Origin: Breznakia sp. PF5-3
GTDB lineage: Bacteria > Bacillota_I > Bacilli_A > Erysipelotrichales > Erysipelotrichaceae
Assembly: GCF_029504745.1 (NCBI RefSeq)
Contig: NZ_JAQFIQ010000055.1
Location: forward strand, 1 to 13,729
Direction: 5' to 3'
Length of the DNA: 13,729 nucleotides
The position numbers and the translations under genes are program-made. Shown one piece after another: positions 993 to 13,729 of this stretch. Every line of letters starts with the position of its first letter. Within the stretch, counting starts at the first letter, position 1. Below the pieces are notes generated by a model. That model was not told the DNA's origin, searched no databases, and worked only from the letters and a program-made list of their open reading frames with translations.

Positions 993-1021
993 TTGAAATC
1001 TCCTTTTGATTGCGGTATATT
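993..1021 (+). promoter_or_regulatory. Candidate sigma-A promoter for nanE
   Basis: TTGAAA (993-998), 17 nt spacer, TATATT (1016-1021). It overlaps the TTG at 1010 that the ORF track uses as a start, which argues for the downstream ATG. Confidence 0.5.
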
Positions 1022-1042
1022 GAGATAGAACGGAGGCGTCTT

Positions 1043-1711
1043 ATGCTTGATAAAATAAAAGGAAAATTAGTAGTATCTTGCCAGGCTTTACCTGATGAAC
1101 CTTTGCATTCATCGTTTATTATGGGAAGGATGGCATTGGCTGCGAAAGTTGGTGGAGCCAGTGGAATCCGCGCACAGAGTAAAGAAGATATTGATGAAAT
1201 TAAAAAGGTTGTTGATTTGCCTGTGATTGGGATTGTAAAACGTAATTATCCAGATAGTGATATATATATTACACCAACAAAAAAGGAAGTTGATGAATTG
1301 TTATCAACAGGGTGTGAAATGATTGCTCTTGATGCAACAGATCGCAAACGACCAAATGATGAAAAAATAGAAGATTTAATTGAATATATCAAAGCTCATG
1401 GAGTAAAAACAATGGCAGATTGTAGTACTTATGAAGAATGTATGGAAGCAGAGCGAATAGGGTTTGATTGTGTTTCAACTACCCTATGTGGATATACACC
1501 ATATAGTAAAAAAGTAGATGGACCCAATTTTGAATTAATTAAAAGATTAGTGAAAGATTTAAAGACACCATTGCTAGCAGAAGGGAAAATAAATACTCCT
1601 GAAGAATTACGTCAAGTTTTAGAATTAGGAGCATACAGTGCAGTTGTTGGTGGTGCAATCACAAGACCTCAACAAATTACAAAAACATTCATTGATGCAA
1701 TAAAAAAATGA
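1043..1711 (+). CDS. nanE: N-acetylmannosamine-6-phosphate 2-epimerase
   Basis: The N-terminus MLDKIKGKLVVSCQALPDEPLHS is characteristic of NanE. The length (222 aa) is that of a TIM-barrel protein. Start moved from TTG 1010 to ATG 1043, which has GGAGG at 1032-1036 with a 6 nt spacer. Confidence 0.9.
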   Translation: MLDKIKGKLVVSCQALPDEPLHSSFIMGRMALAAKVGGASGIRAQSKEDIDEIKKVVDLPVIGIVKRNYPDSDIYITPTKKEVDELLSTGCEMIALDATDRKRPNDEKIEDLIEYIKAHGVKTMADCSTYEECMEAERIGFDCVSTTLCGYTPYSKKVDGPNFELIKRLVKDLKTPLLAEGKINTPEELRQVLELGAYSAVVGGAITRPQQITKTFIDAIKK

Positions 1712-4310: not shown

Positions 4311-4335
4311 AAGCAACTTATGAGAAGTTGCTTTT
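4309..4335. terminator. Bidirectional rho-independent terminator between pepT and the pentapeptide-repeat gene
   Basis: GCAACTT (4313-4319) pairs with AAGTTGC (4325-4331) around a 5-nt loop. It is flanked by AAAA (4309-4312) and TTTT (4332-4335). Confidence 0.7.
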
Positions 4336-4954
4336 ATTCTTTTATTTTCAATCCTAAGATTTTAGATAAATCAATTGCTTGCATTGGGCTTACGATAACA
4401 CCTTTTAAACTATCGTTTGTCAATGCAATACCTTCGATATTACAAGAACTTACATCGATATTTTTTAAATGGGTATGCAAAAACTCACAGCTAGCAAGGT
4501 TACACTCATCAAAGAATACATCCTTAAAGGTTGTTTCGTTGAAACTGCTTTGAGAAAGATTGGTTTGTGAGAAGCACGTATTTTTAATAGTAGCACAGGA
4601 GAAGTTTGTGTAATTGGCACTGTTATTTATAAATTGGATATCTTGTAATCGCGTGGAAGAGAAATCACATCCTGTTAAACGACAGTTTTTAAAGATTACT
4701 CTAATGAGTGATCCTTCATAAAATGATAGATTAGATAAATCACAGTTTTCAAAGATGATATCCATGCCATCGATACGCTCAAAATCACAATCAATAAAGG
4801 TTGTGTTTTTAAAATGACATTCATTGATTTTAAGATGTTTTTGTTTGATTTCCTGAAATTCTTCATTTTCCCAAATACCATATTCAAGCGATTCACTAGA
4901 TGTGTACTCGTAGGTATGTAGGGCTTGGAAAAATTTGGGTTGTTTAATGTTCAT
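4334..4954 (-). CDS. Pentapeptide-repeat protein, Qnr/MfpA-like (putative topoisomerase-protection protein)
   Basis: About 25 consecutive pentads have a central F/L (CHFKN TTFID CDFER ... CNLAS CEFLH THLKN). The size is ~206 aa, and a non-repeat C-terminal segment (SPMQAIDLSKILGLKI) resembles the dimerisation tail of Qnr-type PRPs. Start placed at ATG 4954. The track's TTG 4975 is an alternative. Neither start has an SD. Confidence 0.85.
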   Translation of the reverse strand: MNIKQPKFFQALHTYEYTSSESLEYGIWENEEFQEIKQKHLKINECHFKNTTFIDCDFERIDGMDIIFENCDLSNLSFYEGSLIRVIFKNCRLTGCDFSSTRLQDIQFINNSANYTNFSCATIKNTCFSQTNLSQSSFNETTFKDVFFDECNLASCEFLHTHLKNIDVSSCNIEGIALTNDSLKGVIVSPMQAIDLSKILGLKIKE

Positions 4955-4961
4955 GTTATCT

Positions 4962-4990
4962 ATTATAAATGGCAATTATAATTTTTACAA
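4962..4990 (-). promoter_or_regulatory. Near-consensus sigma-A promoter positioned to give a leaderless PRP mRNA
   Basis: On the minus strand: TTGTAA (4990-4985), 17 nt spacer, TATAAT (4967-4962), then 7 nt before ATG (4954-4952). Confidence 0.5.
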
Positions 4991-5058: not shown

Positions 5059-7197
5059 ATGAAAGAAATTAATGAAATTGCAAATAGTTTGCAAGTTGCA
5101 GAAAGCCAGGTAGTAAATACCTTGAAATTGTTAGAAGAAGGGAATACAGTTCCCTTTATTGCTCGTTATCGAAAAGAGATGACGAAAGGATTGGATGAAG
5201 AACAAATTCGTTTAATTCAGGAAAGTTATACATATAAAATAAATTTAGAAAAGCGTAAAGAAGATGTTTTACGTTTAATTGAGGAACAAGGAAGACTTAC
5301 GGATGAGATTCGTGAGCAGGTCATGAAGTGTGAAAAATTAGCACAGGTGGAAGATATTTATCGACCATACAAGCAAAAGAAAAAAACACGTGCTAGTGTT
5401 GCTGTTGCAGCTGGTTTAAAACCACTTGCAGAATATTTATTGAGTTTTCCTCGTCTACTTGATGATGAAAAAGTAGCAAGCTTTTTAAATGATACAATCA
5501 CAAGTGTTGAAGATGCTTTACAAGGCGCAAAAGATATTATTGCGGAAATAATCAGTGATGATAATGATGTGCGTACTAAAATTTATGATTCAATGATGAA
5601 TTATGGAAAAATAAAAACGAATGAAAAGAAAAATCATGAAGATGAGAATAAAGTATATAAGATGTACTATGATTATGAAGAGCGCATTGGTAGTCTAGCA
5701 GCACATCGAATCATGGCGATTGATCGTGCTGAAAAAGAAAAAGTAATTACTGTTTCAATAATGATAAATGAAGAGTATATAACAAACTGGGTAAAAAGAC
5801 GGTATATGAAGTATCCAAATAGTGCTACCTCTGCAGATGTTGAAGAGGCAATTCTAGATGGTTTAAAACGTTTGGCATATCCATCAATTGAAAGAATGGT
5901 GCGTAGTGAATTAAGTGAGAAAGCTCATGATACAAGTATTGATGTATTTTCATTTAATTTAGAAAAATTACTTCTTCAACCGCCAATGAAAGAAAAGATG
6001 ATCTTAGGTTTTGATCCTGCATATCGTACAGGGTGTAAATTGGCAGTTATTGATCGCCAAGGAAAAATGGTGAAAGTAGATGTTATCTATCCACATAAAC
6101 CTGTTTCTAAGATGAAAGAAGCAAAGCAAAAATTGATTGAGTTACTTACTACTTATAAGATTGATATTGTTGCAATTGGAAATGGAACTGCTAGTAGAGA
6201 GAGTGAAACTTTTGTAGCTGAAGTAATCAAGAGTAACAATTTAAATGTAGCATTTACGCTTGTAAGTGAAGCAGGTGCTTCGGTGTACAGTGCATCAAAA
6301 TTGGCGATTGATGAATTTCCTAAATTACATGTTGAGGAAAGAAGTGCAATCTCCATTGCAAGAAGGTTATTAGATCCTTTATCAGAACTTATTAAAATTG
6401 ATCCTCAATCAATAGGGGTTGGACAATACCAACATGATTTACCTACAACACAACTAAAAGAAAGATTGGCTTTCGTAGTGGAGAAGGCAGTTAACTTAGT
6501 TGGTGTTAATATCAACAGTGCAAGTCCAGCATTGCTGCAAAATGTTGCAGGATTAACAAGTGCGAGTGCAAAGAGCATTGTTTCGTATCGTGAGGAGAAT
6601 GGGAAAATAGCATCACGTAAAGTGATTAAAAAAATCCCTAAAATTGGACCAAAAGCATATGAGCAAGCGGCAGGATTTTTACGTGTGGAAGATAGTGAAG
6701 AAAAGTTAGATCGTACAGCAATTCATCCAGAAAGCTATAAACTAGCAAAAGCAGTTTTAAAAAGATTAAATCTTACAGAAGATGATATGGGGACTTCCAA
6801 AGCAGAAATAGAAGTTAAAAAACTGAATCGTGAAGAACTATTAGAACAATTAGAATGTGATTCCTATACTTTGGATGACATTTTAGATGCTATTTGTTTA
6901 CCATTGCGTGATTATCGTGATCAATATGATGCCCCAATTTTACGTCAGGATATTTTGTCTTTTGAAGACTTAAGTGAAGGCGATGAACTTGAAGGCGTGG
7001 TTCGTAATGTTGTTGATTTTGGTGCGTTTGTTGATATTGGGTTAAAAGAAGATGGATTGATTCATATATCACAATTATCGAAAACAAGAGTAAAGCATCC
7101 AAGTGATATTGTTTCCGTAGGCGATATTTTAAAAGTATGGGTATATAAAATTGATGAAGAAAAGCATAAAGTACAATTAACGTTGATTGAAAGATAG
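5059..7197 (+). CDS. tex: Transcription accessory protein Tex (S1 RNA-binding domain protein)
   Basis: The 712 aa product has the N-terminal VPFIARYRKE motif and a central YqgF/RuvC-like region (GFDPAYRTGCK). HhH-like repeats follow, then a C-terminal S1 domain (GVVRNVVDFGAFVDIG...DGLIHISQL). Confidence 0.95.
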   Translation: MKEINEIANSLQVAESQVVNTLKLLEEGNTVPFIARYRKEMTKGLDEEQIRLIQESYTYKINLEKRKEDVLRLIEEQGRLTDEIREQVMKCEKLAQVEDIYRPYKQKKKTRASVAVAAGLKPLAEYLLSFPRLLDDEKVASFLNDTITSVEDALQGAKDIIAEIISDDNDVRTKIYDSMMNYGKIKTNEKKNHEDENKVYKMYYDYEERIGSLAAHRIMAIDRAEKEKVITVSIMINEEYITNWVKRRYMKYPNSATSADVEEAILDGLKRLAYPSIERMVRSELSEKAHDTSIDVFSFNLEKLLLQPPMKEKMILGFDPAYRTGCKLAVIDRQGKMVKVDVIYPHKPVSKMKEAKQKLIELLTTYKIDIVAIGNGTASRESETFVAEVIKSNNLNVAFTLVSEAGASVYSASKLAIDEFPKLHVEERSAISIARRLLDPLSELIKIDPQSIGVGQYQHDLPTTQLKERLAFVVEKAVNLVGVNINSASPALLQNVAGLTSASAKSIVSYREENGKIASRKVIKKIPKIGPKAYEQAAGFLRVEDSEEKLDRTAIHPESYKLAKAVLKRLNLTEDDMGTSKAEIEVKKLNREELLEQLECDSYTLDDILDAICLPLRDYRDQYDAPILRQDILSFEDLSEGDELEGVVRNVVDFGAFVDIGLKEDGLIHISQLSKTRVKHPSDIVSVGDILKVWVYKIDEEKHKVQLTLIER

Positions 7198-7205
7198 GTG
7201 TAATA

Positions 7206-7823
7206 ATGGATATTTTTGATAAATTATATGACTATCAAAAAGATAGAGTAAAAGAAATAATAAGGAATAGTGAAACTGCAGATTATGGACAAACTGTTTT
7301 CTTTGGTGATTCTATTATTCAAAGTTATGATTTAAAAACATATTTTCCAAACGAGAATTACTATAATTGTGGTGTTTTAGGTGCAACTACTGTACAACTG
7401 CTTTATTTACATGATTATGCTATTCAAAAGTATAAGCCTAAGAATATCGTATTAATGATTGGTACAAACGATTTAGACGATGTACATCAGTATGAGCCAT
7501 TAGATATTGTGTATAATGTTTATAAGTTGCTAGAGATTATTGATGTTCGTTATGATGTAGACAATATCTATATACTTTCTCCTTTACCGATAGATGAAAG
7601 TCGAATGAAGCAAGGCTTAAGAGATAATCGACAATTAAAACTTTTAGGAAAAGAGTATGAAAAACTAACAATGGAATTTGAAAATGTACACTATATAAAT
7701 CTATTTGAAGATTTCTTAGTAGATGGTCAAATACATGCAGAGTATACAAGTGATGGCTTGCATATAACAGCAAAAGGGTATGCAATCATAAGTGAAAAAT
7801 TAAAAGAAATCTATAAAATTTAA
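7206..7823 (+). CDS. SGNH/GDSL-family hydrolase (esterase or lipase-like)
   Basis: The 205 aa product has block I FFGDSI, block III GTND and block V DGLHIT. It starts 8 nt after the tex stop with AGGTG as RBS, so it is probably co-transcribed. Confidence 0.85.
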   Translation: MDIFDKLYDYQKDRVKEIIRNSETADYGQTVFFGDSIIQSYDLKTYFPNENYYNCGVLGATTVQLLYLHDYAIQKYKPKNIVLMIGTNDLDDVHQYEPLDIVYNVYKLLEIIDVRYDVDNIYILSPLPIDESRMKQGLRDNRQLKLLGKEYEKLTMEFENVHYINLFEDFLVDGQIHAEYTSDGLHITAKGYAIISEKLKEIYKI

Positions 7824-7833
7824 ATAAAATAAT

Positions 7834-7871
7834 AAAAAATGTGATAACAGTGGTGAAAATCACATTTTTTA
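7834..7871 (+). terminator. Terminator after the tex-SGNH unit
   Basis: AAAAAATGTGAT (7834-7845) pairs with ATCACATTTTTT (7859-7870) around a 13-nt loop, and a T-run follows. The stem is AT-rich. Confidence 0.5.
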
Positions 7872-7911
7872 TTAATCAATTATATTTTATAAATGTTTTT
7901 GGGGTAATCAG

Positions 7912-7940
7912 TTGAATGTTGTAAAATTAGGGCTTACAAT
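7912..7940 (+). promoter_or_regulatory. Candidate sigma-A promoter for the giant surface-protein gene
   Basis: TTGAAT (7912-7917), 17 nt spacer, TACAAT (7935-7940). This predicts a leader of about 120 nt. Confidence 0.5.
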
Positions 7941-7957
7941 ATAGTTGCAGATAGGAC

Positions 7958-7983
7958 CCTGCTTTTTAAGCATGACAAGCAGG
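7958..7983 (+). promoter_or_regulatory. Stem-loop near the predicted 5' end of the giant-gene leader
   Basis: CCTGCTT (7958-7964) pairs with AAGCAGG (7977-7983). TGCTT can alternatively pair with the nearer AAGCA at 7968-7972. No T-run follows, so this is not a terminator. Confidence 0.3.
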
Positions 7984-8066
7984 AAAAAATTTTACTCATA
8001 TAATTATAACAAATAAGCAAACAATAAGTATAATATAACTAAATATTGTGCAAGGGAGGGCATTGT

Positions 8067-8159
8067 ATGAAAAAGAAAGGAATTAGCAGGTTTGGAAATC
8101 TTGTGTTAGCAATATTTCTAACATTAACATGTGGAGCTGTGCTTCTTGATTCGAACGCA
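8067..8159 (+). other. Sec (signal peptidase I type) signal peptide of the giant protein
   Basis: KKK..R n-region, a hydrophobic core of about 16 aa, and S-N-A before the predicted cut after aa 31. Confidence 0.7.
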
Positions 8160-11100
8160 TTAGAAGTATTAGATGACTTCGGTATTAAAACAGAAGTAAC
8201 GTATTCAGATGCAAAAGACACAGCTAAGATTGAATTGGATCTAGAAGAAGTGAAAGAGGAATTTTCAATAATGGAAATTATAGATCCTGAAAATGAGAAA
8301 ATGGATTTTAATAATCTTACTTTTGATGTGCAAAAGAATGGAGAATATATTTTCAAAGTAAAGTACTTACAAAAGACAAGGGTACTTAGTGAAAATGAAC
8401 CGACTACTGAGGGCGATGATGTAACATATAGTGAAGCTTGGATTCTAAATGGAGATGAAGAAGAGCAAACATATGATTTGAAAGTAAAGGTTGATGAGAT
8501 TAAAACTTCAGAAGATACGCAAACAACTATTGAAGAAAATCAAGGAAAAAAAGAAATCAAAGAAGTTGGTGATGCATTAAATGTACGTGGGTTTAGTGAT
8601 AAAATTGAAATTTCCCCACGATCAACAGCAACCAATAATTCAGTAACCATTGATATACCAGATTATAATGCAACAACTGGGTGGACACGTGGAGATATCA
8701 AGGAAGTAAAGGTTACAGTTAACTTTGGTGATGCAACTTCAGCTAATAAAAAAGTATCAATTACAGTACCAGAAGGTTTGCGATATGAGCAAATTTCAAT
8801 TAAGAGTGATACCAACAAAACAGGTGCAGATCCAAAAATACTTACACTTTATGATGCAGGTGATCCAATAGTTACAAGTGCAACTTCGATCACATTACCA
8901 AAATTAGAGACAGTAGCATCAAAGAAATCAACTTTTGGTAAACTAGAATATCAATTCTTGAATACCGTACAAACGGTTACGATTAAATTTCAAGTTGGAG
9001 TAGATATAACAAGGTATTATGGACCACACACAGTAAAAAATCCTATTAGTGTGGATGTAAGGAAAGGGAATAATGTCTTAGTTGGTGGTAGTGTTGTAAA
9101 CCAATCAGTAAAATTAACAGGTGGTGTGTTATCAACAGGAATAATAACATACTACAGTACATTAACAGCAGCAGGATCAAAAGAGGTAATTGCTAGTACT
9201 GCAAGTGATGAATCTTTAGGTAGAGTTAACCAATATCATTTACCACTTCACAATTGGGAGTGGAAGGATACCCATAGATATGCTAAAAGTGTGACAATGG
9301 ACTTATATTTTCCAGCAGGGATGGAATATCATAGTATTACGGGCTTGCCAGCATTTACTGTTGTAAGTAAAGACAATGCTGCAGGTCGAGTAACCATCAA
9401 AATTGATAATTGGATGACACGACAGGATTTTTGGCTCTATTATAAGGTTCCGATTGGAAAAGCCGTAGGGACATATAATCTAACAGGAAAAGATAAAATT
9501 ACATATACTTGGTATGATGGTACGGTTGAATCAAAGACTAGACCAACTAGTGTAGTAGATTATAATACAAAAGTAATTTCAACCCCTGTAAATAAAATGA
9601 CTCTCAGCAATAGTCGAGATGGATATGCTAATGCAGATGTAGAACATTATTCACGTGGTACAATGTGGGTGTTTTCTAATGCGAGTGCAGGAAAGCGTAC
9701 AAATCAAACCGTAGAGTTTACAATTGATCCAAATTGGCAAGCGGTAATGCTGCATTTGCCATTTGATAAAACAATAACTACAAATAAAATTACGAAGGTA
9801 TATTATAAAACGAATAAAAGTCCTACGACATGGAAAGAATATAATATATCGACAGGCTTACCATTGTCAGGGAATGTAGCAGTTTTGAAAAAGACAAATA
9901 TGAAAAATGCTTCAGGAGCTGCACTTTTGGCTAGTGATGAGTATTTTACAGCGGTGAAAGCAAATATAGGGTCAGTTTCACAAGATTATACACAATCAAC
10001 TAATATTGATAACAATGGAAATATTCTTGTTTATGGTAAATTCGCCCCTAATAGTACAGTGAATGAAGCGCCAATTACCATCTCAATGTACGATGAAAGT
10101 AATAAAACAGCAACTACTGTTACAGGAACAAGATATGTTAGAAAATCATTAGCAGGTAACAAAAAGGTAGTTTCGCATTCAACCGTGGAATTTCGAGATG
10201 AAAATAATTCAATAGTTTCAGGTATAACAGCTGGTTCATCTTTTAAGGTTAATGCGAAAGTATCAACTCGGCAAGTTCAACAATCAACAGCGCAAGCGAT
10301 GGCAAATCCAGAGATTTATTTAAGACAACCAAAAGGAATGACGATTGCCTCAGATTCGATTACAATAAAGGATAATTCAGGAAAAGCTGTGGCTTTCGAT
10401 ATTGCACCACTTTATCAAAATAAATTTGGTGAAAAAATTTATATATTAAAAACTAAAAATTGTGTATTAGGATTATATTTAGATGAAAATATTTCTATCA
10501 ATAGAACTTTCAATGTATCTTATACAGTAGGAACAGATGGTACGATGGCTGGAGGGTCGATGAATGCTAGGGATTTAGTATCATGGGGAAAAGATGGATA
10601 TGCACCAGTTAGTGATGGACAAACCCCAGGGTATGTTGATGCGTATGATTTTAATGGAAATAACAATTATACAGAACAATTACTTTCTTTTAAAGATCTT
10701 CCGTTTACTATAGCAGAAAATAAAAACGTATTAGTAGAAACGTTCTTGTCATTTGCGGGTCAAGAACCAAGTGCTCCATATATAGAAGGAGTAGATAGTA
10801 CTTTAGTTTATTTTACTCCTGGAACACAAGCAGATTATACGGTGAAGATGACTAACAATTCATCTTCAGCGGCTAAAACAAAAGTATATATTCCAATTCC
10901 AAAAACAAATGACAATTTTGGAGCAGGATTTCAAAGTACGGCTTTTAAATGGGATATGAAATTAAGAAGTGCAGTTGCTGCGCAAAGTGGTTTTACTGTT
11001 ATGTATTCTACAACTGCAACAGCTGCAAACTATGAGCAAGCTGCTCAATATAAAACAGCAGCCCAAGTAAACCTAGCAGATGTGAAAATGGTGAAGATTG

Positions 11101-13729
11101 AGGCTACGAGTATGGCAGTAAATGCGACTGCAAACTTCAAAATACCACTACAAATCAATGAAACATTCAGTAGTGCTACACAACCTGGACAAGAAAAAGT
11201 AAAGACAAGGAATATTTATAATCCTAGGTATTCTGTTGAAAGTGCTAGTTTTAATGGGAATCTTCCAGGTACTAAAGTAGGTGCTGAATTAATTATTACC
11301 GAAATTGGTGGAACAATCTTTGAAGATAAGAATGGAAATAGTATTTATGATGCTGGAGATTTACCAGTTATAGGTCATAGTGTAGAACTATATAAATGGG
11401 ATGATGTACAGAAAAAATATTTGGTAGCTAAAGATAAAGCTAATAAAGCAATTACAACAGTAAGTAATGCAACTGGAAAGTATCTCTTTGATAATACTTT
11501 AGATTTACCAAAAGGTACGTATGCTGTGAAGTTTGCCGCAAAAACAAATTATCAATTTGTGAAGACTGGATCTGGTAGTTCAGATGTTGATAGTAATGTA
11601 ATCATTGCTGATAATCTTCCAAAAGCTGGTGATAAATATAAAGGATGGATTATTGATATTGATGGAACTTTACCAATTGCGAAAACCATGGGTTGTGGAT
11701 TTGTTAAATATAATCCAGCGACAAATTTAGGATTAACGTTACCAACAACAACTTTAGAGTTCAAAGTAGATGAAACACGTACAATGAGTCCAACAAGCAT
11801 TACACCTAACTACTGGGAAACAATTAAAGGGAATCCTGGATATAAATGGGAATTGGTCACTGCAACAGACTCACAATATGTACAGTTAACAGCAGCGAAT
11901 CAAAAACAATTGACATTAAAAGGTTTGAAAAAAACACCATTGGGTTATGAAATTCAAGTTAAGTTAACAATCAATGATATTTATGGTGGTACAAAAAGTG
12001 CTACTACAAAAATAAAAATTAATACAAAGGTAGCACCAACTATAACAACAAGTACGATAAATGCCTATGTTGGTGATCAAGTGAATCTATTAGCTGGAGT
12101 TAGTGCAAAAGATGATAATAATGAAAATATTGTAATCACAGAAGAAGGAGCACTTAAAAATACAACGATTCTTAATAAAGATAAAATATCAAGTTCAGGT
12201 GGAAAATACAACAAATCAGAGACTTATAAAATAACGTATGAAGTGTTAGATAAATATGGAAACAAAGGAACCAAAGATCGAATTATTAAGGTTAATGGAA
12301 ATCCGATTATTACTGCCAATGCACAAGTATATCAACTTGGTGAGGCAGATATTCTCACAAAAGTAAAGAATGCAGCTGAGGCTAGTTTCATGAAAGCATC
12401 AGAAACACCAGGAAATGCAGCTACAAAAACAGTGTTTGCTATGAATGCACCAACCATAACAGGACCGACACAAGACTTTACAGCAGTTGGTAAATATCAA
12501 GTTACATATAGTGCGAAAAATGAAGATAATAAATCAGTTAGCAAAACCGTTGATGTGATTATTACAAATGGAATAGTTCCAGGTAATGAACAAAAAGGTA
12601 TAGAAATTAGAGCAGATAATATTGTAATAGAACGTAATGAGTTGGCAACCTTTGATCTTGCAAAAGCAATGAATAAAGCAAATGTACAAGCAATCTATTA
12701 TGAAAGAGATGATAAGAAAAATCTTACTAAACTAGATGATATTACAACATCAATTAGTGTAAGTTCACTTGATAATATAAAAAAGGCTCCTGAAAAAGGT
12801 GGCGAATATGAACTTACTTTTACTACAACATATAGTGGAGTTACAAGCAATAAGAAGATTTTGGCAGTGGTTGTAGGTAATGAATTAAAAGTTCAAAATG
12901 GCTTGGTTATAAAAGCAACCGATATTGATATTGAGAATGATGCAGCAAGAGTTCTAACGCAATCACAAGCGATTTCATTGGCGAATGTAGAAGCGTATGT
13001 ATTACAAACAAAACAGGCAACTGCAAATAATACAGTAAATACTACTCAGCTCAATGCGATTAAAGCAGTTACTAATGATGCACAAACATTCAAGCTAACC
13101 TATACTGCAACACAAGATGGAAAGACAGTAAGTATTGAAAAGGATGTAAATGTAAATCATTCATTAGTAGGACCAGTAATTACAGCAGATGCATGTGAAC
13201 ATTATGTAGGTGATAAGTTTGAAGTACTACATGATGTAAGTGCTAAAGATGTGAATAATGATGCTATTAATTTAGAAATGACAGGTTCTAATAAAAATAC
13301 TGAAGTGGAACATCAAATACCATTAGAAAATGGTGAGTATAAAACAGCAGGAACTTATGAAATCAAATATGCAATTACTGATAAATATGGTAATACAACA
13401 GAAAAGACAAGATTGGTAAAAGTACATGCTATGCCAGTGATTGAAACAAATCCACAAGTATATTCATTAAAAGATGAAGATATTGCTGGACAAATTACAG
13501 CAGCAGCAAGTGCATACTACAATAAAGCAGATAATGCTGTTGGGGCCACTCCTATCAAAACAAAAATTGATGAAATCAGCTATGAAATTAGCGGACCTAG
13601 CCAAGATTTCAGCGAAGTAGGAACTTATGAGATTACCTATAAGAGTGAAAATGTAGATGGACGTAAAGCAAGTAAGAAAGTAGAAGTTATCATTACGAAG
13701 AATGAGCCTTTACCTACCGATGTGGATAA
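8067..13729 (+). CDS. Giant secreted surface or adhesin-like protein, 5' portion only (more than 1887 aa; runs off the window)
   Basis: Not in the supplied ORF track. I read every codon from ATG 8067 to 13727 and found no in-frame stop. An in-frame TAA at 8040 closes the frame upstream. GGGAGGG sits at 8054-8060, 6 nt before the ATG. Signal peptide MKKKGISRFGNLVLAIFLTLTCGAVLLDSNA|LE. Composition is Thr/Asn/Lys/Val-rich and Cys-poor. An SdrD-B-like domain and Ig-like modules lie downstream. Confidence 0.92.
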   Translation, partial: MKKKGISRFGNLVLAIFLTLTCGAVLLDSNALEVLDDFGIKTEVTYSDAKDTAKIELDLEEVKEEFSIMEIIDPENEKMDFNNLTFDVQKNGEYIFKVKYLQKTRVLSENEPTTEGDDVTYSEAWILNGDEEEQTYDLKVKVDEIKTSEDTQTTIEENQGKKEIKEVGDALNVRGFSDKIEISPRSTATNNSVTIDIPDYNATTGWTRGDIKEVKVTVNFGDATSANKKVSITVPEGLRYEQISIKSDTNKTGADPKILTLYDAGDPIVTSATSITLPKLETVASKKSTFGKLEYQFLNTVQTVTIKFQVGVDITRYYGPHTVKNPISVDVRKGNNVLVGGSVVNQSVKLTGGVLSTGIITYYSTLTAAGSKEVIASTASDESLGRVNQYHLPLHNWEWKDTHRYAKSVTMDLYFPAGMEYHSITGLPAFTVVSKDNAAGRVTIKIDNWMTRQDFWLYYKVPIGKAVGTYNLTGKDKITYTWYDGTVESKTRPTSVVDYNTKVISTPVNKMTLSNSRDGYANADVEHYSRGTMWVFSNASAGKRTNQTVEFTIDPNWQAVMLHLPFDKTITTNKITKVYYKTNKSPTTWKEYNISTGLPLSGNVAVLKKTNMKNASGAALLASDEYFTAVKANIGSVSQDYTQSTNIDNNGNILVYGKFAPNSTVNEAPITISMYDESNKTATTVTGTRYVRKSLAGNKKVVSHSTVEFRDENNSIVSGITAGSSFKVNAKVSTRQVQQSTAQAMANPEIYLRQPKGMTIASDSITIKDNSGKAVAFDIAPLYQNKFGEKIYILKTKNCVLGLYLDENISINRTFNVSYTVGTDGTMAGGSMNARDLVSWGKDGYAPVSDGQTPGYVDAYDFNGNNNYTEQLLSFKDLPFTIAENKNVLVETFLSFAGQEPSAPYIEGVDSTLVYFTPGTQADYTVKMTNNSSSAAKTKVYIPIPKTNDNFGAGFQSTAFKWDMKLRSAVAAQSGFTVMYSTTATAANYEQAAQYKTAAQVNLADVKMVKIEATSMAVNATANFKIPLQINETFSSATQPGQEKVKTRNIYNPRYSVESASFNGNLPGTKVGAELIITEIGGTIFEDKNGNSIYDAGDLPVIGHSVELYKWDDVQKKYLVAKDKANKAITTVSNATGKYLFDNTLDLPKGTYAVKFAAKTNYQFVKTGSGSSDVDSNVIIADNLPKAGDKYKGWIIDIDGTLPIAKTMGCGFVKYNPATNLGLTLPTTTLEFKVDETRTMSPTSITPNYWETIKGNPGYKWELVTATDSQYVQLTAANQKQLTLKGLKKTPLGYEIQVKLTINDIYGGTKSATTKIKINTKVAPTITTSTINAYVGDQVNLLAGVSAKDDNNENIVITEEGALKNTTILNKDKISSSGGKYNKSETYKITYEVLDKYGNKGTKDRIIKVNGNPIITANAQVYQLGEADILTKVKNAAEASFMKASETPGNAATKTVFAMNAPTITGPTQDFTAVGKYQVTYSAKNEDNKSVSKTVDVIITNGIVPGNEQKGIEIRADNIVIERNELATFDLAKAMNKANVQAIYYERDDKKNLTKLDDITTSISVSSLDNIKKAPEKGGEYELTFTTTYSGVTSNKKILAVVVGNELKVQNGLVIKATDIDIENDAARVLTQSQAISLANVEAYVLQTKQATANNTVNTTQLNAIKAVTNDAQTFKLTYTATQDGKTVSIEKDVNVNHSLVGPVITADACEHYVGDKFEVLHDVSAKDVNNDAINLEMTGSNKNTEVEHQIPLENGEYKTAGTYEIKYAITDKYGNTTEKTRLVKVHAMPVIETNPQVYSLKDEDIAGQITAAASAYYNKADNAVGATPIKTKIDEISYEISGPSQDFSEVGTYEITYKSENVDGRKASKKVEVIITKNEPLPTDVD
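11298..11711 (+). other. SdrD B-repeat-like (Cna-B/CarboxypepD_reg-like) Ca-binding domain, aa ~1078-1215
   Basis: GGTIFEDKNGNSIYDAGD has a DxNxNGxxD-type loop. Further matches are GHSVELYK, the strand pair ATGKYLFDN...LPKGTYAVKF, then DVDSN and ...GCGFVKY. This matches the pattern of staphylococcal Sdr B repeats. Confidence 0.7.
12030..13729 (+). repeat. Diverged protein-level module array A-B-C-C'-A-B, period about 379 aa
   Basis: Module A at 12030-12302 and 13167-13433 matches the DUF5011/HYR-like Ig pattern (P.IT....YVGD......VSAKD.NN..I......Y.I.Y...DKYGN...K.R..KV). Module B at 12303-12572 and 13434-13703 shares P.I..N.QVY.L..DI....AA.A...KA....GP.QDF..VG.Y..TY....S K.V.VIIT. Module C at 12597-12878 and 12900-13157 shares G..I.A..I.IE....ANV.A....LT[FY]T.T. 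Copies are only about 35-45% identical by eye. Confidence 0.7.

Follow-up and report, generated by a model that had tools for sequence, protein, structure and literature searches.

What is encoded in the last 5.7 kb of the window, a 13,729-nt stretch of DNA from Breznakia sp. PF5-3, is the question that this locus raises. Breznakia is a genus of Erysipelotrichaceae described from insect guts. Among open reading frames of 80 aa or more, the listing gives only two for this part of the window (8039-8356 and 11552-11800), both of them antisense.

The reading frame and its upstream region

The first-pass annotation had claimed an uninterrupted plus-strand frame running from 8067 to the end of the window, and re-translation bears this out: 1887 codons are read from ATG 8067 with zero stops, after which two leftover bases remain and the frame exits the window. 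The probability of so long a run without a stop, calculated from the base composition of the region, is about 10^-71.6, and shuffling 200 times gave a longest stop-free run of 133 codons (mean 77). Read in its other five frames, the DNA shows between 59 and 250 stops. The GC content is 18% at codon position 3 against 44% at position 1, and the RSCU correlates with that of the housekeeping genes of the window at r=0.92 in frame and at 0.46 out of frame. The absence of this ORF from the list had been ascribed to its unclosed frame, and the documentation of the list agrees, as frames running off an end are omitted. Hence, a real gene that makes up 41% of the window (5663/13729 bases, the share given at first pass) was hidden by a list restricted to closed frames.

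The truncation of the gene by the window, also claimed earlier, extends to the assembly. The window stops where the source contig stops, at a point that corresponds to base 1 of contig JAQFIR010000014.1. The exact protein is held by NCBI as 'hypothetical protein M2475_002109, partial', at the extreme end of a 50-kb contig. Since the window and contig ends coincide and the record is labelled partial, the public record of the gene is itself cut by an assembly break. Scans for sequence extending the gene past the contig end found none. The ORF is a real but incomplete gene. A dead remnant or pseudogene, or a region expressed only as fragments, with its disruption concealed by the contig end, is barely credible as an alternative; the incompleteness of the gene would fit it, as would the fragments of family members that other genomes contain, such as one of 1063 aa in L. 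monocytogenes, but the unbroken frame, the host-like codon usage, the strong third-position bias, the intact start region, and a full-length colinearity with a complete 2507-aa relative speak against it. Moreover, assemblies often break within repeat-rich genes, though no near-identical DNA repeats were visible within the window.

At the start region, an in-frame TAA (8040-8042) precedes the start codon, and the sole alternative start, TTG 8046, is without a Shine-Dalgarno sequence; the strong one reported at first pass is present ahead of ATG 8067 (Table 1). The promoter that had been placed 120 nt upstream fared less well. A 9/12 site does exist there, but a better one lies closer to the start codon, and the AT-rich 600 nt hold 5 promoter-like sites against 3.3 +/- 2.1 in shuffles. 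As this number does not rise above the shuffle expectation, neither site counts as promoter evidence. The stop codon of the upstream GDSL-lipase gene is directly followed by an AT-rich hairpin and a T run (AAAAAATGTGA-15 nt-TCACATTTTTT), which was not called by a terminator scan that demands at least three G-C pairs. The hairpin may be the terminator of the GDSL-lipase gene, in which case the giant gene would form a separate transcription unit.

Table 1. Features of the giant gene and of the region preceding it (positions in the window; aa, residues of the predicted protein)
Feature	Positions	Strand	Evidence
AT-rich hairpin and T run	7834..7870	+	read directly
Promoter-like TTGAAT-17-TACAAT, 9/12 match, first-pass site	7912..7940	+	site count not above shuffles
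Promoter-like ATAACA-17-TATAAT, 10/12 match, 33 nt before start codon	8006..8034	+	not above chance
Shine-Dalgarno GGGAGGG, 6 nt 5' of ATG 8067	8054..8060	+	read directly
ORF, 5' part of predicted giant surface protein gene	8067..13729	+	translation, coding statistics, NCBI record
Predicted Sec-type signal peptide, aa 1-31, likely cleavage after SNA	8067..8159	+	direct reading; same n/h/c layout in homologues
Small N-terminal beta-sandwich domain, aa 41-142	8187..8492	+	AlphaFold pLDDT 90-95; alignment occupancy 0.34-0.65
Disordered charged linker, aa 150-185	8514..8621	+	pLDDT 32-34; sequence
All-beta head of ~890 aa, family-defining module, aa 186-1075	8622..11291	+	exhaustive search; AlphaFold
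pAdhesive_6 (PF20595) jelly roll, first domain of head, aa 209-333	8691..9065	+	31.7-32 bits, gathering score 27, E ~1e-7
Most conserved core of head, aa 887-966	10725..10964	+	invariant columns in alignments A2, A3; conservation profile
SdrD B-like domain (PF17210), aa 1079-1179	11301..11603	+	E 2.6e-11 to 8e-13; SdrD 4jdz among Foldseek matches
First stalk beta-sandwich, PKD-like, aa 1222-1319	11730..12023	+	model 2; weak K319L-like PKD match
Two Ig-like stalk domains, aa 1325-1410 and 1414-1500	12039..12566	+	PF16403; model 2
Two ~95-aa alpha/beta repeat copies, aa 1510-1603 and 1611-1696	12594..13154	+	model 2: mixed helix/strand, pLDDT ~90
Second Ig-like stalk pair, aa 1704-1787 and 1791-1877	13176..13697	+	Pfam, internal repeat, model 2

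Domain organization of the protein

The protein is rich in T (11.0%), K (9.0%), and N (7.5%). Its N-terminus consists of the basic MKKKGISR, the hydrophobic FGNLVLAIFLTLTCGAVLL (19-aa core), and then DSNA|LE; by direct reading, this n/h/c layout with its SNA|L site agrees with the classical signal peptide proposed earlier and is of Sec type I. It is followed by a small beta-sandwich domain found in part of the family only, a linker, the head, one SdrD B domain, and a stalk of Ig-like and ~95-aa alpha/beta domains. The first-pass annotation had spoken of a modular, adhesin-like giant and had suggested Pfam, AlphaFold, and Foldseek as checks; these yielded pAdhesive_6, SdrD_B, and four Bact_surface_Ig-like (PF16403) stretches, together with two confident models (pLDDT 87 and 89) that are built almost entirely of beta-sandwich domains and that, among solved structures, best match Gram-positive adhesins, cadherins, and arrays of the S-layer or extender type.

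The AlphaFold model of aa 32-1200 (1169 aa) is all-beta with a pLDDT of 86.8 and a pTM of 0.67, and most of the head exceeds a pLDDT of 85. The head is matched in Foldseek only by chains of beta-sandwiches (PrgB, AgI/II C123, SdrD, integrin legs, and macroglobulin arrays), with low TM-scores (0.1-0.3) that indicate such a chain and no specific homologue, and a sequence search of the PDB with the head gave no match. The pAdhesive_6 match is marginal (32 bits vs 27) and was not surfaced by a scan of the whole 1887-aa protein; in the conservation profile, few parts of the family are as well conserved as this domain. The conserved core further along the head carries the motifs NVLVETFL..G..P..PY, YFTPGTxADYTV.I.NN, and YIPIPKTxxNFGxxFQxxxFKWDMKL. 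A bacterial alpha-2-macroglobulin or thioester-domain protein was also considered and was rejected: the 1887 aa contain four Cys (aa 22, 799, 1210, and 1710), none of them in a CxEQ context, no TED or A2M match was found in Pfam, and the structural matches are generic MG-type sandwiches.

The single SdrD B-like domain bears an acidic loop, FEDKNGNSIYDAGD, at aa 1085-1098 and may bind Ca2+ as known SdrD B domains do. For the PKD-like first stalk domain, a family profile hits collagenase and bacillolysin in their PKD and Ig domains, and the first member of the first Ig-like pair is a Bact_surface_Ig-like (DUF5011) domain. The ~95-aa alpha/beta repeat has no match in Pfam; an iterated HMM found 99 copies of it across 29 proteins of the family, 20 of them in one protein. 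An internal super-repeat is evident from the 41% identity between aa 1307-1500 and aa 1685-1877, and the second Ig-like pair opens a second super-repeat that is interrupted by the contig end. AlphaFold model 2 (aa 1180-1887) reached a pLDDT of 89.0 and a pTM of 0.44, as a beads-on-a-string arrangement would lead one to expect. Its Foldseek matches include protocadherins, S-layer arrays, the GhpA neck, and RTX adhesin extenders.

Relatives, anchors, and known surface proteins

In an exhaustive search of 1.84 billion proteins, the related clusters numbered about 118, with 58 below 1e-30; nearly all are proteins of 1.2-3.9 kaa with the head at the N-terminus. They come from Erysipelotrichales, Culicoidibacter, several Listeria species, and a few Clostridia MAGs. 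A small family with a large conserved head is thus common to insect-gut Erysipelotrichia and to several Listeria species. The source records give all of its members generic names. The closest relative (P0002, 2507 aa, complete) is colinear along the entire ORF and continues for 654 aa to a helix and a basic tail; judged by this colinearity, about 650 aa including an anchor would be missing from the PF5-3 protein.

The LPXTG check suggested at first pass is answered by the complete members, which end in LPKTG, LPSTG, LPTTG, LPQTG, or variants, followed by a membrane helix and a K/R tail. For example, the Listeria relatives end in LPKTGD, a helix, and RRR. The five paralogs of B. pachnodae end in V[GKAD]T[GS]D with a helix and a K/R tail and without Leu-Pro, and the canonical LPXTG is absent from the Breznakia paralogs. 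Surface anchoring of the PF5-3 protein is probable by analogy. Paralog expansion is typical of surface-protein repertoires; besides the five copies in B. pachnodae, three occur in some Listeria genomes, and paralogs within a genome are divergent (35-44% identity).

These features bear on the possibility that the protein is a structural component of the envelope, serving as an S-layer-like coat or else as a spacer, and recognises no specific ligand. Sap, EA1, SbsB, and SbsC are among the top Foldseek matches of the stalk model, and the head is predicted to be rigid (pTM 0.67). However, the S-layer matches score a TM of only 0.10-0.14, neither SLH nor CWB2 nor any other domain for S-layer anchoring occurs in the available 1887 aa, the anchors of the family resemble LPXTG or consist of a single helix, and several divergent paralogs per genome misfit a single abundant lattice protein. 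An envelope role is therefore very unlikely.

A few members end in dockerins instead (P0007, with Pfam Dockerin_1 at E 1.3e-9; P0041 and P0050 by motif); Gram_pos_anchor and Dockerin_1 were each confirmed by Pfam in single members. The type I dockerin ends, which replace the wall anchor in these three proteins, could suggest a tether for dietary polysaccharides (plant fibre or chitin) or an all-beta carbohydrate-active enzyme, nearer to cellulosome-associated proteins than to host adhesins. The insect-gut origin of the genus would suit this, as would the strong conservation of the head core, in which numerous D, E, K, Y, and W positions are invariant, a pAdhesive_6 domain that is conserved and not variable, and noise-level matches to the carbohydrate-related beta-sandwich families X25, GH95_C, and CarboxypepD_reg. 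Against it, most members carry wall or membrane anchors and not dockerins, no glycoside hydrolase, lyase, or CBM family rose above threshold in Pfam or NCBIfam, Foldseek returned adhesin and Ig arrays with no enzymes, and polysaccharide-utilisation genes are absent beside the giant gene. No catalytic fold (Foldseek) or catalytic Pfam family was found in the protein. This reading is unlikely, though less so than an envelope role.

Several known systems may be compared with the preferred reading of a surface adhesin. The pAdhesive_6 family goes back to Monzon et al. 2022, where it is cluster 5 among the predicted fibrillar adhesins; it was defined with Collagen_bind-like jelly rolls, its function was predicted from a Collagen_bind-like or pilin-like fold, and 53 UniProtKB matches were reported (PMC9210967). 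The PF5-3 protein shares with it the near-N-terminal position, the long stalk behind, and the rarity (53 UniProtKB hits; 118 clusters here). Unlike the conserved head of ~890 residues, the Pfam family spans only ~125, and the remainder, including the core at aa 887-966, belongs to no Pfam family. A precomputed pAdhesive_6 domain is also borne by the relatives P0017 and P0119. The accession of the PF20595 seed representative adjoins that of a member of the family from Culicoidibacter larvae (P0006), so both are probably from one proteome.

Likewise, SdrD of S. aureus (4JDZ) and other Sdr/Clf MSCRAMMs combine a Sec signal and a binding region at the N-terminus with a long spacer, a domain of the SdrD B type whose acidic loop is of the Ca type, and an LPXTG anchor, the last being found in the relatives of the PF5-3 protein. 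In contrast to them, the PF5-3 protein has only one B domain (PF17210, E 2.6e-11), a head about three times larger, and a spacer of folded Ig-like and alpha/beta domains; in its 1887 aa, neither an A region of the SdrG_C_C/Collagen_bind DEv-IgG type (Pfam at E up to 0.1-1) nor a Ser-Asp dipeptide repeat was found, and a tandem-repeat finder returned only trivial 9-12 nt arrays. The best structural matches of the head, PrgB of E. faecalis (Ig-like, 8BEG) and C123 of streptococcal antigen I/II (6E3F, 7L0O), are likewise tandem beta-sandwich domains of Gram-positive surfaces, with 8-10% identity and a TM of 0.14-0.30 that mean a resemblance of fold class only. Unlike them, the PF5-3 protein is without the PrgB adhesin domain, an alanine- or proline-rich stalk, or nearby conjugation genes. 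Similarly, Bap-type and RTX extenders project a binding region on a long rod of tandem Ig-like domains, and Foldseek places the Aeromonas RTX extender 6XI1 and the GhpA neck 9FLP among the matches of the stalk model, but these systems differ in type I rather than Sec secretion, in the anchor, and in having no sequence relationship.

True homologues are the Listeria LPXTG proteins recorded as 'bacterial Ig-like domain-containing' or 'DUF5011 domain-containing', e.g. L. seeligeri WP_338671838.1 (P0013, 2006 aa). They follow the same overall plan and align throughout the head and SdrD B domain at 33-35% identity, whereas their stalk is made of Big_3 (PF07523, E 3e-156 in one member) and their LPKTGD anchor is canonical.

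A predicted fibrillar adhesin

By the domain-based definition of fibrillar adhesins of Monzon and Bateman (PMC8286594 / PMC9210967), the protein carries a secretion signal, a pAdhesive_6 domain (marginal, its function predicted), and a stalk of tandem domains. Probably, positions 8067-13729 hold the 5' three quarters of a ~7.5 kb gene for a giant cell-surface protein of ~2,500 aa, and this product is a fibrillar adhesin of a small uncharacterised family. The architecture is the expected plan of Gram-positive fibrillar adhesins, the first domain of the head is already flagged as putatively adhesive by Pfam, and no established picture is changed.

The protein would be exported by Sec and its signal peptide cut off. 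A C-terminal sorting signal (motif, membrane helix, and basic tail), expected past the contig end from the complete relatives, would tether it to the surface. From this anchor, the Ig-like and alpha/beta stalk would reach outward to the putatively Ca-binding SdrD B domain, and the far tip would bear the rigid all-beta head beginning with the pAdhesive_6 jelly roll. The head would most likely bind a ligand on the host gut lining, food particles, or other cells; fibrillar adhesins work by binding such ligands. An adhesive function, this kind of ligand, and a setting of ligand specificity by the N-terminal region are all suggested. Adhesin tips are often variable, while the pAdhesive_6 domain is conserved, and hence the head could have a conserved structural or other role instead.

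Giant surface proteins are prime candidates for the hold of gut symbionts on host or food. The ligand of the head would give a first handle on the attachment of Breznakia and might also bear on how non-pathogenic Listeria live in the environment. A bolder proposal, which has only an outside chance of being right, sees in the head, conserved in insect-gut Erysipelotrichia and as far as Listeria, a new and rigid recognition machine of several domains for which neither a solved nor a characterised relative exists. In B. pachnodae, each of the five divergent copies is preceded by a cassette of its own, made up of an ECF-type sigma factor that spans the membrane and a small surface protein of the Flg_new type; this arrangement hints at a repertoire of giant surface proteins that is switched under the control of signals. 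The PF5-3 copy is without this cassette and could therefore be the constitutively expressed member.

The reading frame and its missing end

The giant open reading frame, from ATG 8067 to base 13729 of the forward strand, contains no in-frame stop, and re-translation returns 1887 sense codons as they had been read in the first-pass annotation. With the base composition of this region a stop is expected about every 12 codons, and the probability of an open run of this length is ~10^-72; the longest open run in 200 shuffles is 133 codons, and each of the remaining five frames is interrupted by 59-250 stops. The GC content is 44% at codon position 1 and 18% at position 3. The synonymous codon usage correlates with that of the Tex, M20 peptidase, NanE and GDSL lipase genes of the same window (r=0.92), and the correlation drops to 0.46 if the frame is read one base out of register. 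That a frame of this kind belongs to a pseudogene is highly improbable.

The frame is bounded upstream by an in-frame stop (see the table), and the sole alternative start, TTG 8046, lacks a ribosome-binding site. The strong SD sequence described earlier is present (GGGAGGG, 8054-8060, 6 nt before the ATG). The near-consensus promoter proposed along with it finds no support, as sigma-70-like sites are no commoner here than in shuffled sequence. The absence of the gene from the ORF list has the cause that had been presumed: frames running off an end are left out of the list, whose entries for this stretch are just two short antisense ORFs. These (8039-8356, 105 aa; 11552-11800, 82 aa; both on the reverse strand) lie wholly within the giant gene and are best regarded as chance ORFs. 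The 5' leader was considered as a riboswitch or leader element and rejected, since no Rfam family matches at E up to 1 and its fold is not better than that of shuffles (z = -1.5). Likewise, horizontal transfer of the ORF was rejected, given that its GC content, skews and codon usage match the rest of the window.

An identical 1887-aa protein is found in NCBI and UniRef ('hypothetical protein M2475_002109, partial [Breznakia sp. PF5-3]'). In assembly GCA_029504775.1 it is located at the extreme end of contig JAQFIR010000014.1 (50,010 bp), and the contigs carrying it all stop at the same place. The gene is truncated by the window, as first suggested, and because the exact protein sits at the very end of that contig the window end is an assembly break as well. 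Near-identical DNA repeats are absent within the giant ORF, and nothing in the window shows why the assembly breaks off here. Neither an exact search with the terminal 50-mer of the window nor a protein scan of metagenome contigs gave a match, and the 3' end was not recovered. The closest relative, P0002, has 2507 aa and shares 47% identity over the head; it aligns colinearly with the giant ORF along its full length and continues with two further super-repeats, a helix and a basic tail. Because P0002 runs 654 aa further, about one quarter of the giant gene is probably missing here.

Architecture of the protein and its family

Direct reading bears out the signal peptide, residues 1-31 (MKKKGISR-FGNLVLAIFLTLTCGAVLL-DSNA/LE), with the basic, hydrophobic and small-x-small layout of a Sec signal. 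A lipoprotein reading (LTLTC) was rejected, also on direct reading, as a lipobox does not have Thr at position -1 and the hydrophobic stretch extends beyond the Cys. The Pfam matches of the whole protein are a single SdrD B domain (aa 1079-1179) and Bact_surface_Ig-like (DUF5011) at four stretches; when the protein is scanned piecewise, pAdhesive_6 (PF20595) also matches, at aa 209-333, with a score of 32 bits (threshold 27). The acidic loop FEDKNGNSIYDAGD is present in the SdrD B domain, and we take it to be of the type that binds calcium in SdrD (PDB 4JDZ). No NCBIfam entry matches the first 1075 residues. The head, an all-beta module of ~890 aa (aa 186-1075), has no match in the PDB by sequence, whether searched as a single sequence or as a family profile; these searches gave noise (gastrotropin) or PKD and Ig domains, the latter matching the stalk.

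Two AlphaFold models were built with family alignments as input, and both have high confidence. Model 1 (aa 32-1200) has a pLDDT of 86.8 and a pTM of 0.67, and because this pTM is fairly high over 1169 residues, the model suggests that the head domains are packed in a defined arrangement. Model 2 (aa 1180-1887; pLDDT 89.0, pTM 0.44) shows separate domains in a string, and an internal repeat (aa 1307-1500 versus aa 1685-1877, 41% identity) is consistent with it. Foldseek matches in the PDB include, for the head, PrgB Ig-like domains, antigen I/II C123, SdrD, integrin legs and macroglobulin arrays, and for the stalk, protocadherins, S-layer arrays, the GhpA neck and RTX adhesin extenders; because the TM-scores are low (0.1-0.3), these matches identify a class of fold rather than particular homologues. 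A purpose-built HMM of the ~95-aa alpha/beta repeat of the stalk detects it 99 times across 29 family proteins, including 20 copies in the family member P0007, and the repeat is a candidate new family of stalk domains.

Features of the giant gene and protein, and cassettes of Breznakia pachnodae
Feature	Location	Strand	Remark
In-frame stop TAA	8040-8042	+	Bounds giant frame at 5' side
Sigma-70-like sites	7912-7940; 8006-8034	+	Count not above shuffles
Small beta-sandwich	aa 41-142		Model 1
Disordered linker	aa 150-185		Model 1
Continuous all-beta region	After linker, through SdrD B domain inclusive		Model 1
Stalk: PKD-like sandwich, two Ig-like, two ~95-aa alpha/beta, two Ig-like, in this order within the modelled stretch	aa 1180-1887		Model 2
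Two ~95-aa alpha/beta stalk domains	12594-13154; aa 1510-1696	+	No Pfam family
Cassettes, locus L002	6977-9439; 17153-19604
Cassette, locus L003	7107-9551
Cassette, locus L004	~7051-9322
Cassette, locus L005	~7004-9250
Cassette, locus L008	~7150-9463

Word-index searches with the full giant protein and with aa 32-1075, in which repeats filled the limit of 8000 candidates, gave the protein itself or no match; a scan of genome contigs with the single giant protein found no relative, and a profile query retrieved just 4 proteins. The family emerged through an exhaustive HMMER search with aa 32-1075 against 1.84 billion representative proteins. It yielded 118 clusters (58 below 1e-30), made up almost entirely of proteins of 1,200-3,900 aa with the head N-terminal. 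The scan of species-representative genomes was guided by the alignment of closer relatives (A3), the wider alignment A2 being too diverse for search patterns. It found five paralogs in Breznakia pachnodae (2,241-2,839 aa, 35-44% identity), and further hosts among uncultured Erysipelotrichales, Coprobacillaceae and Anaerorhabdus, Culicoidibacterales, a few Clostridia MAGs, and Listeria (L. immobilis, L. ilorinensis, L. farberi, L. cossartiae and L. marthii). Cluster look-ups, in which the members bear generic names throughout, add L. seeligeri (152 sequences), Culicoidibacter larvae and one fragment in L. monocytogenes. The members of the L. monocytogenes group look fragmentary or masked (locus L028 of L. 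marthii; P0135, LMxysn_0112 of L. monocytogenes, 1063 aa), which may point to decay or variability of the gene in this lineage. The best conserved parts of the head are aa 182-331, corresponding to the pAdhesive_6 domain, and aa 882-1081, with the near-invariant motifs YFTPGTxADY and PIPKTGxNFGxxFQxxxFKWDMKL.

The suggested check for an LPXTG motif with a hydrophobic, basic tail could be answered on complete relatives, whose C-termini have a sorting-signal layout. The Listeria relatives carry a canonical LPKTGD followed by a hydrophobic helix and basic tail, and other members also have a canonical LPXTG. The Breznakia paralogs at five loci (L002, L003, L004, L005 and L008) end in VGTGD, VKTGD, VGTSD, VATSD or VDTSD, a V-x-T-[GS]-D pattern followed by a hydrophobic helix and K/R tail, i.e., the layout of a sortase signal without Leu-Pro; this tail may be cleaved by sortase, or the helix may simply be retained in the membrane. 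Type I dockerin repeats take the place of a wall or membrane anchor in the C-terminal ~70 aa of P0007 (3909 aa; Pfam Dockerin_1, E 1.3e-9), P0041 (3451 aa) and P0050, which implies attachment of these members via a cohesin partner. The dockerin-bearing members and the conserved core of the head would fit a polysaccharide-capture or enzymatic role of the giant protein, a reading considered unlikely; no catalytic fold occurs among the Foldseek matches of the head and stalk models.

Probable reading as a surface adhesin

The giant protein is likely to be a surface adhesin, for which we infer the anchoring of this copy, the binding and the ligand. The Sec signal would direct its export, a long stalk of tandem folded domains would bear a distal binding head, and a C-terminal wall or membrane anchor would complete the plan of a fibrillar adhesin. 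Three of the four sequence-based features of this class are present, and the fourth, the anchor, lies beyond the end of the sequence. That the protein forms a structural coat is very unlikely. It is not an Sdr/Clf MSCRAMM: despite its single B domain, it lacks the DEv-IgG A region and the Ser-Asp repeat. Identifications as an S-layer, thioester or macroglobulin protein were rejected on the 1887 aa of sequence.

The pAdhesive_6 domain was defined by Monzon et al. (cluster 5) from fibrillar adhesins predicted by machine learning, and is described as a jelly roll like Collagen_bind and Gram-positive pilin domains (PMC9210967). Because the UniProt accession of its representative adjoins that of P0006, the family member of Culicoidibacter larvae, part of the head-bearing family has probably been catalogued already, as prediction only. 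Of some novelty are the large conserved head without a solved or studied relative, the ~95-aa stalk repeat without annotation, the departure of the Breznakia paralogs from the canonical C-terminal signal, and the regulatory cassette beside the B. pachnodae copies.

Neighbouring genes and the cassette of B. pachnodae

A conserved two-gene cassette lies immediately 5' of all five giant paralogs of B. pachnodae (DSM 16784), and a sixth is found downstream of one paralog, in L002. The product of the first cassette gene is an ECF-type sigma factor of ~426 aa that carries a C-terminal extension and a membrane helix predicted at aa 245-263. The second gene codes for a protein of ~390 aa in which a signal peptide is combined with a Listeria-Bacteroides (Flg_new) repeat and, at the C-terminus, a helix and basic tail. 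This arrangement suggests that each giant gene is under dedicated, possibly signal-dependent control. The cassette was not found in the window, in the 15.6-kb locus L001, which includes DNA directly 5' of window base 1, or at the P0002 locus, where other genes lie alongside: a ClpB-like gene upstream, and genes for signal peptidase and bactofilins downstream.

Breznakia is a genus of Erysipelotrichaceae. GC content and skew are uniform throughout the window, and the upstream genes (transaldolase, NanE, lipoprotein-like protein, M20 peptidase, pentapeptide-repeat protein, Tex and GDSL lipase) are ordinary and have no obvious link to the giant gene. No Pfam family matches the reverse-strand ORF 1733-2992 (419 aa), which carries a canonical lipoprotein signal (LFITLVSGC), a further hydrophobic helix at ~aa 217-240 and a low-complexity acidic tail with AEEAEP repeats; it was rejected as a partner, being unrelated to the cassette protein. 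An IS200/IS605-type Y1 transposase gene (PF01797, 151 aa; L001 1481-1936) abuts the window start beside the transaldolase gene. Mechanical TTG starts give 233 aa for 1010-1711 (+) and 213 aa for 4334-4975 (-), against 222 aa for NanE and 206 aa for the pentapeptide-repeat protein in the public record, and the true starts of both genes are probably internal to these ORFs.
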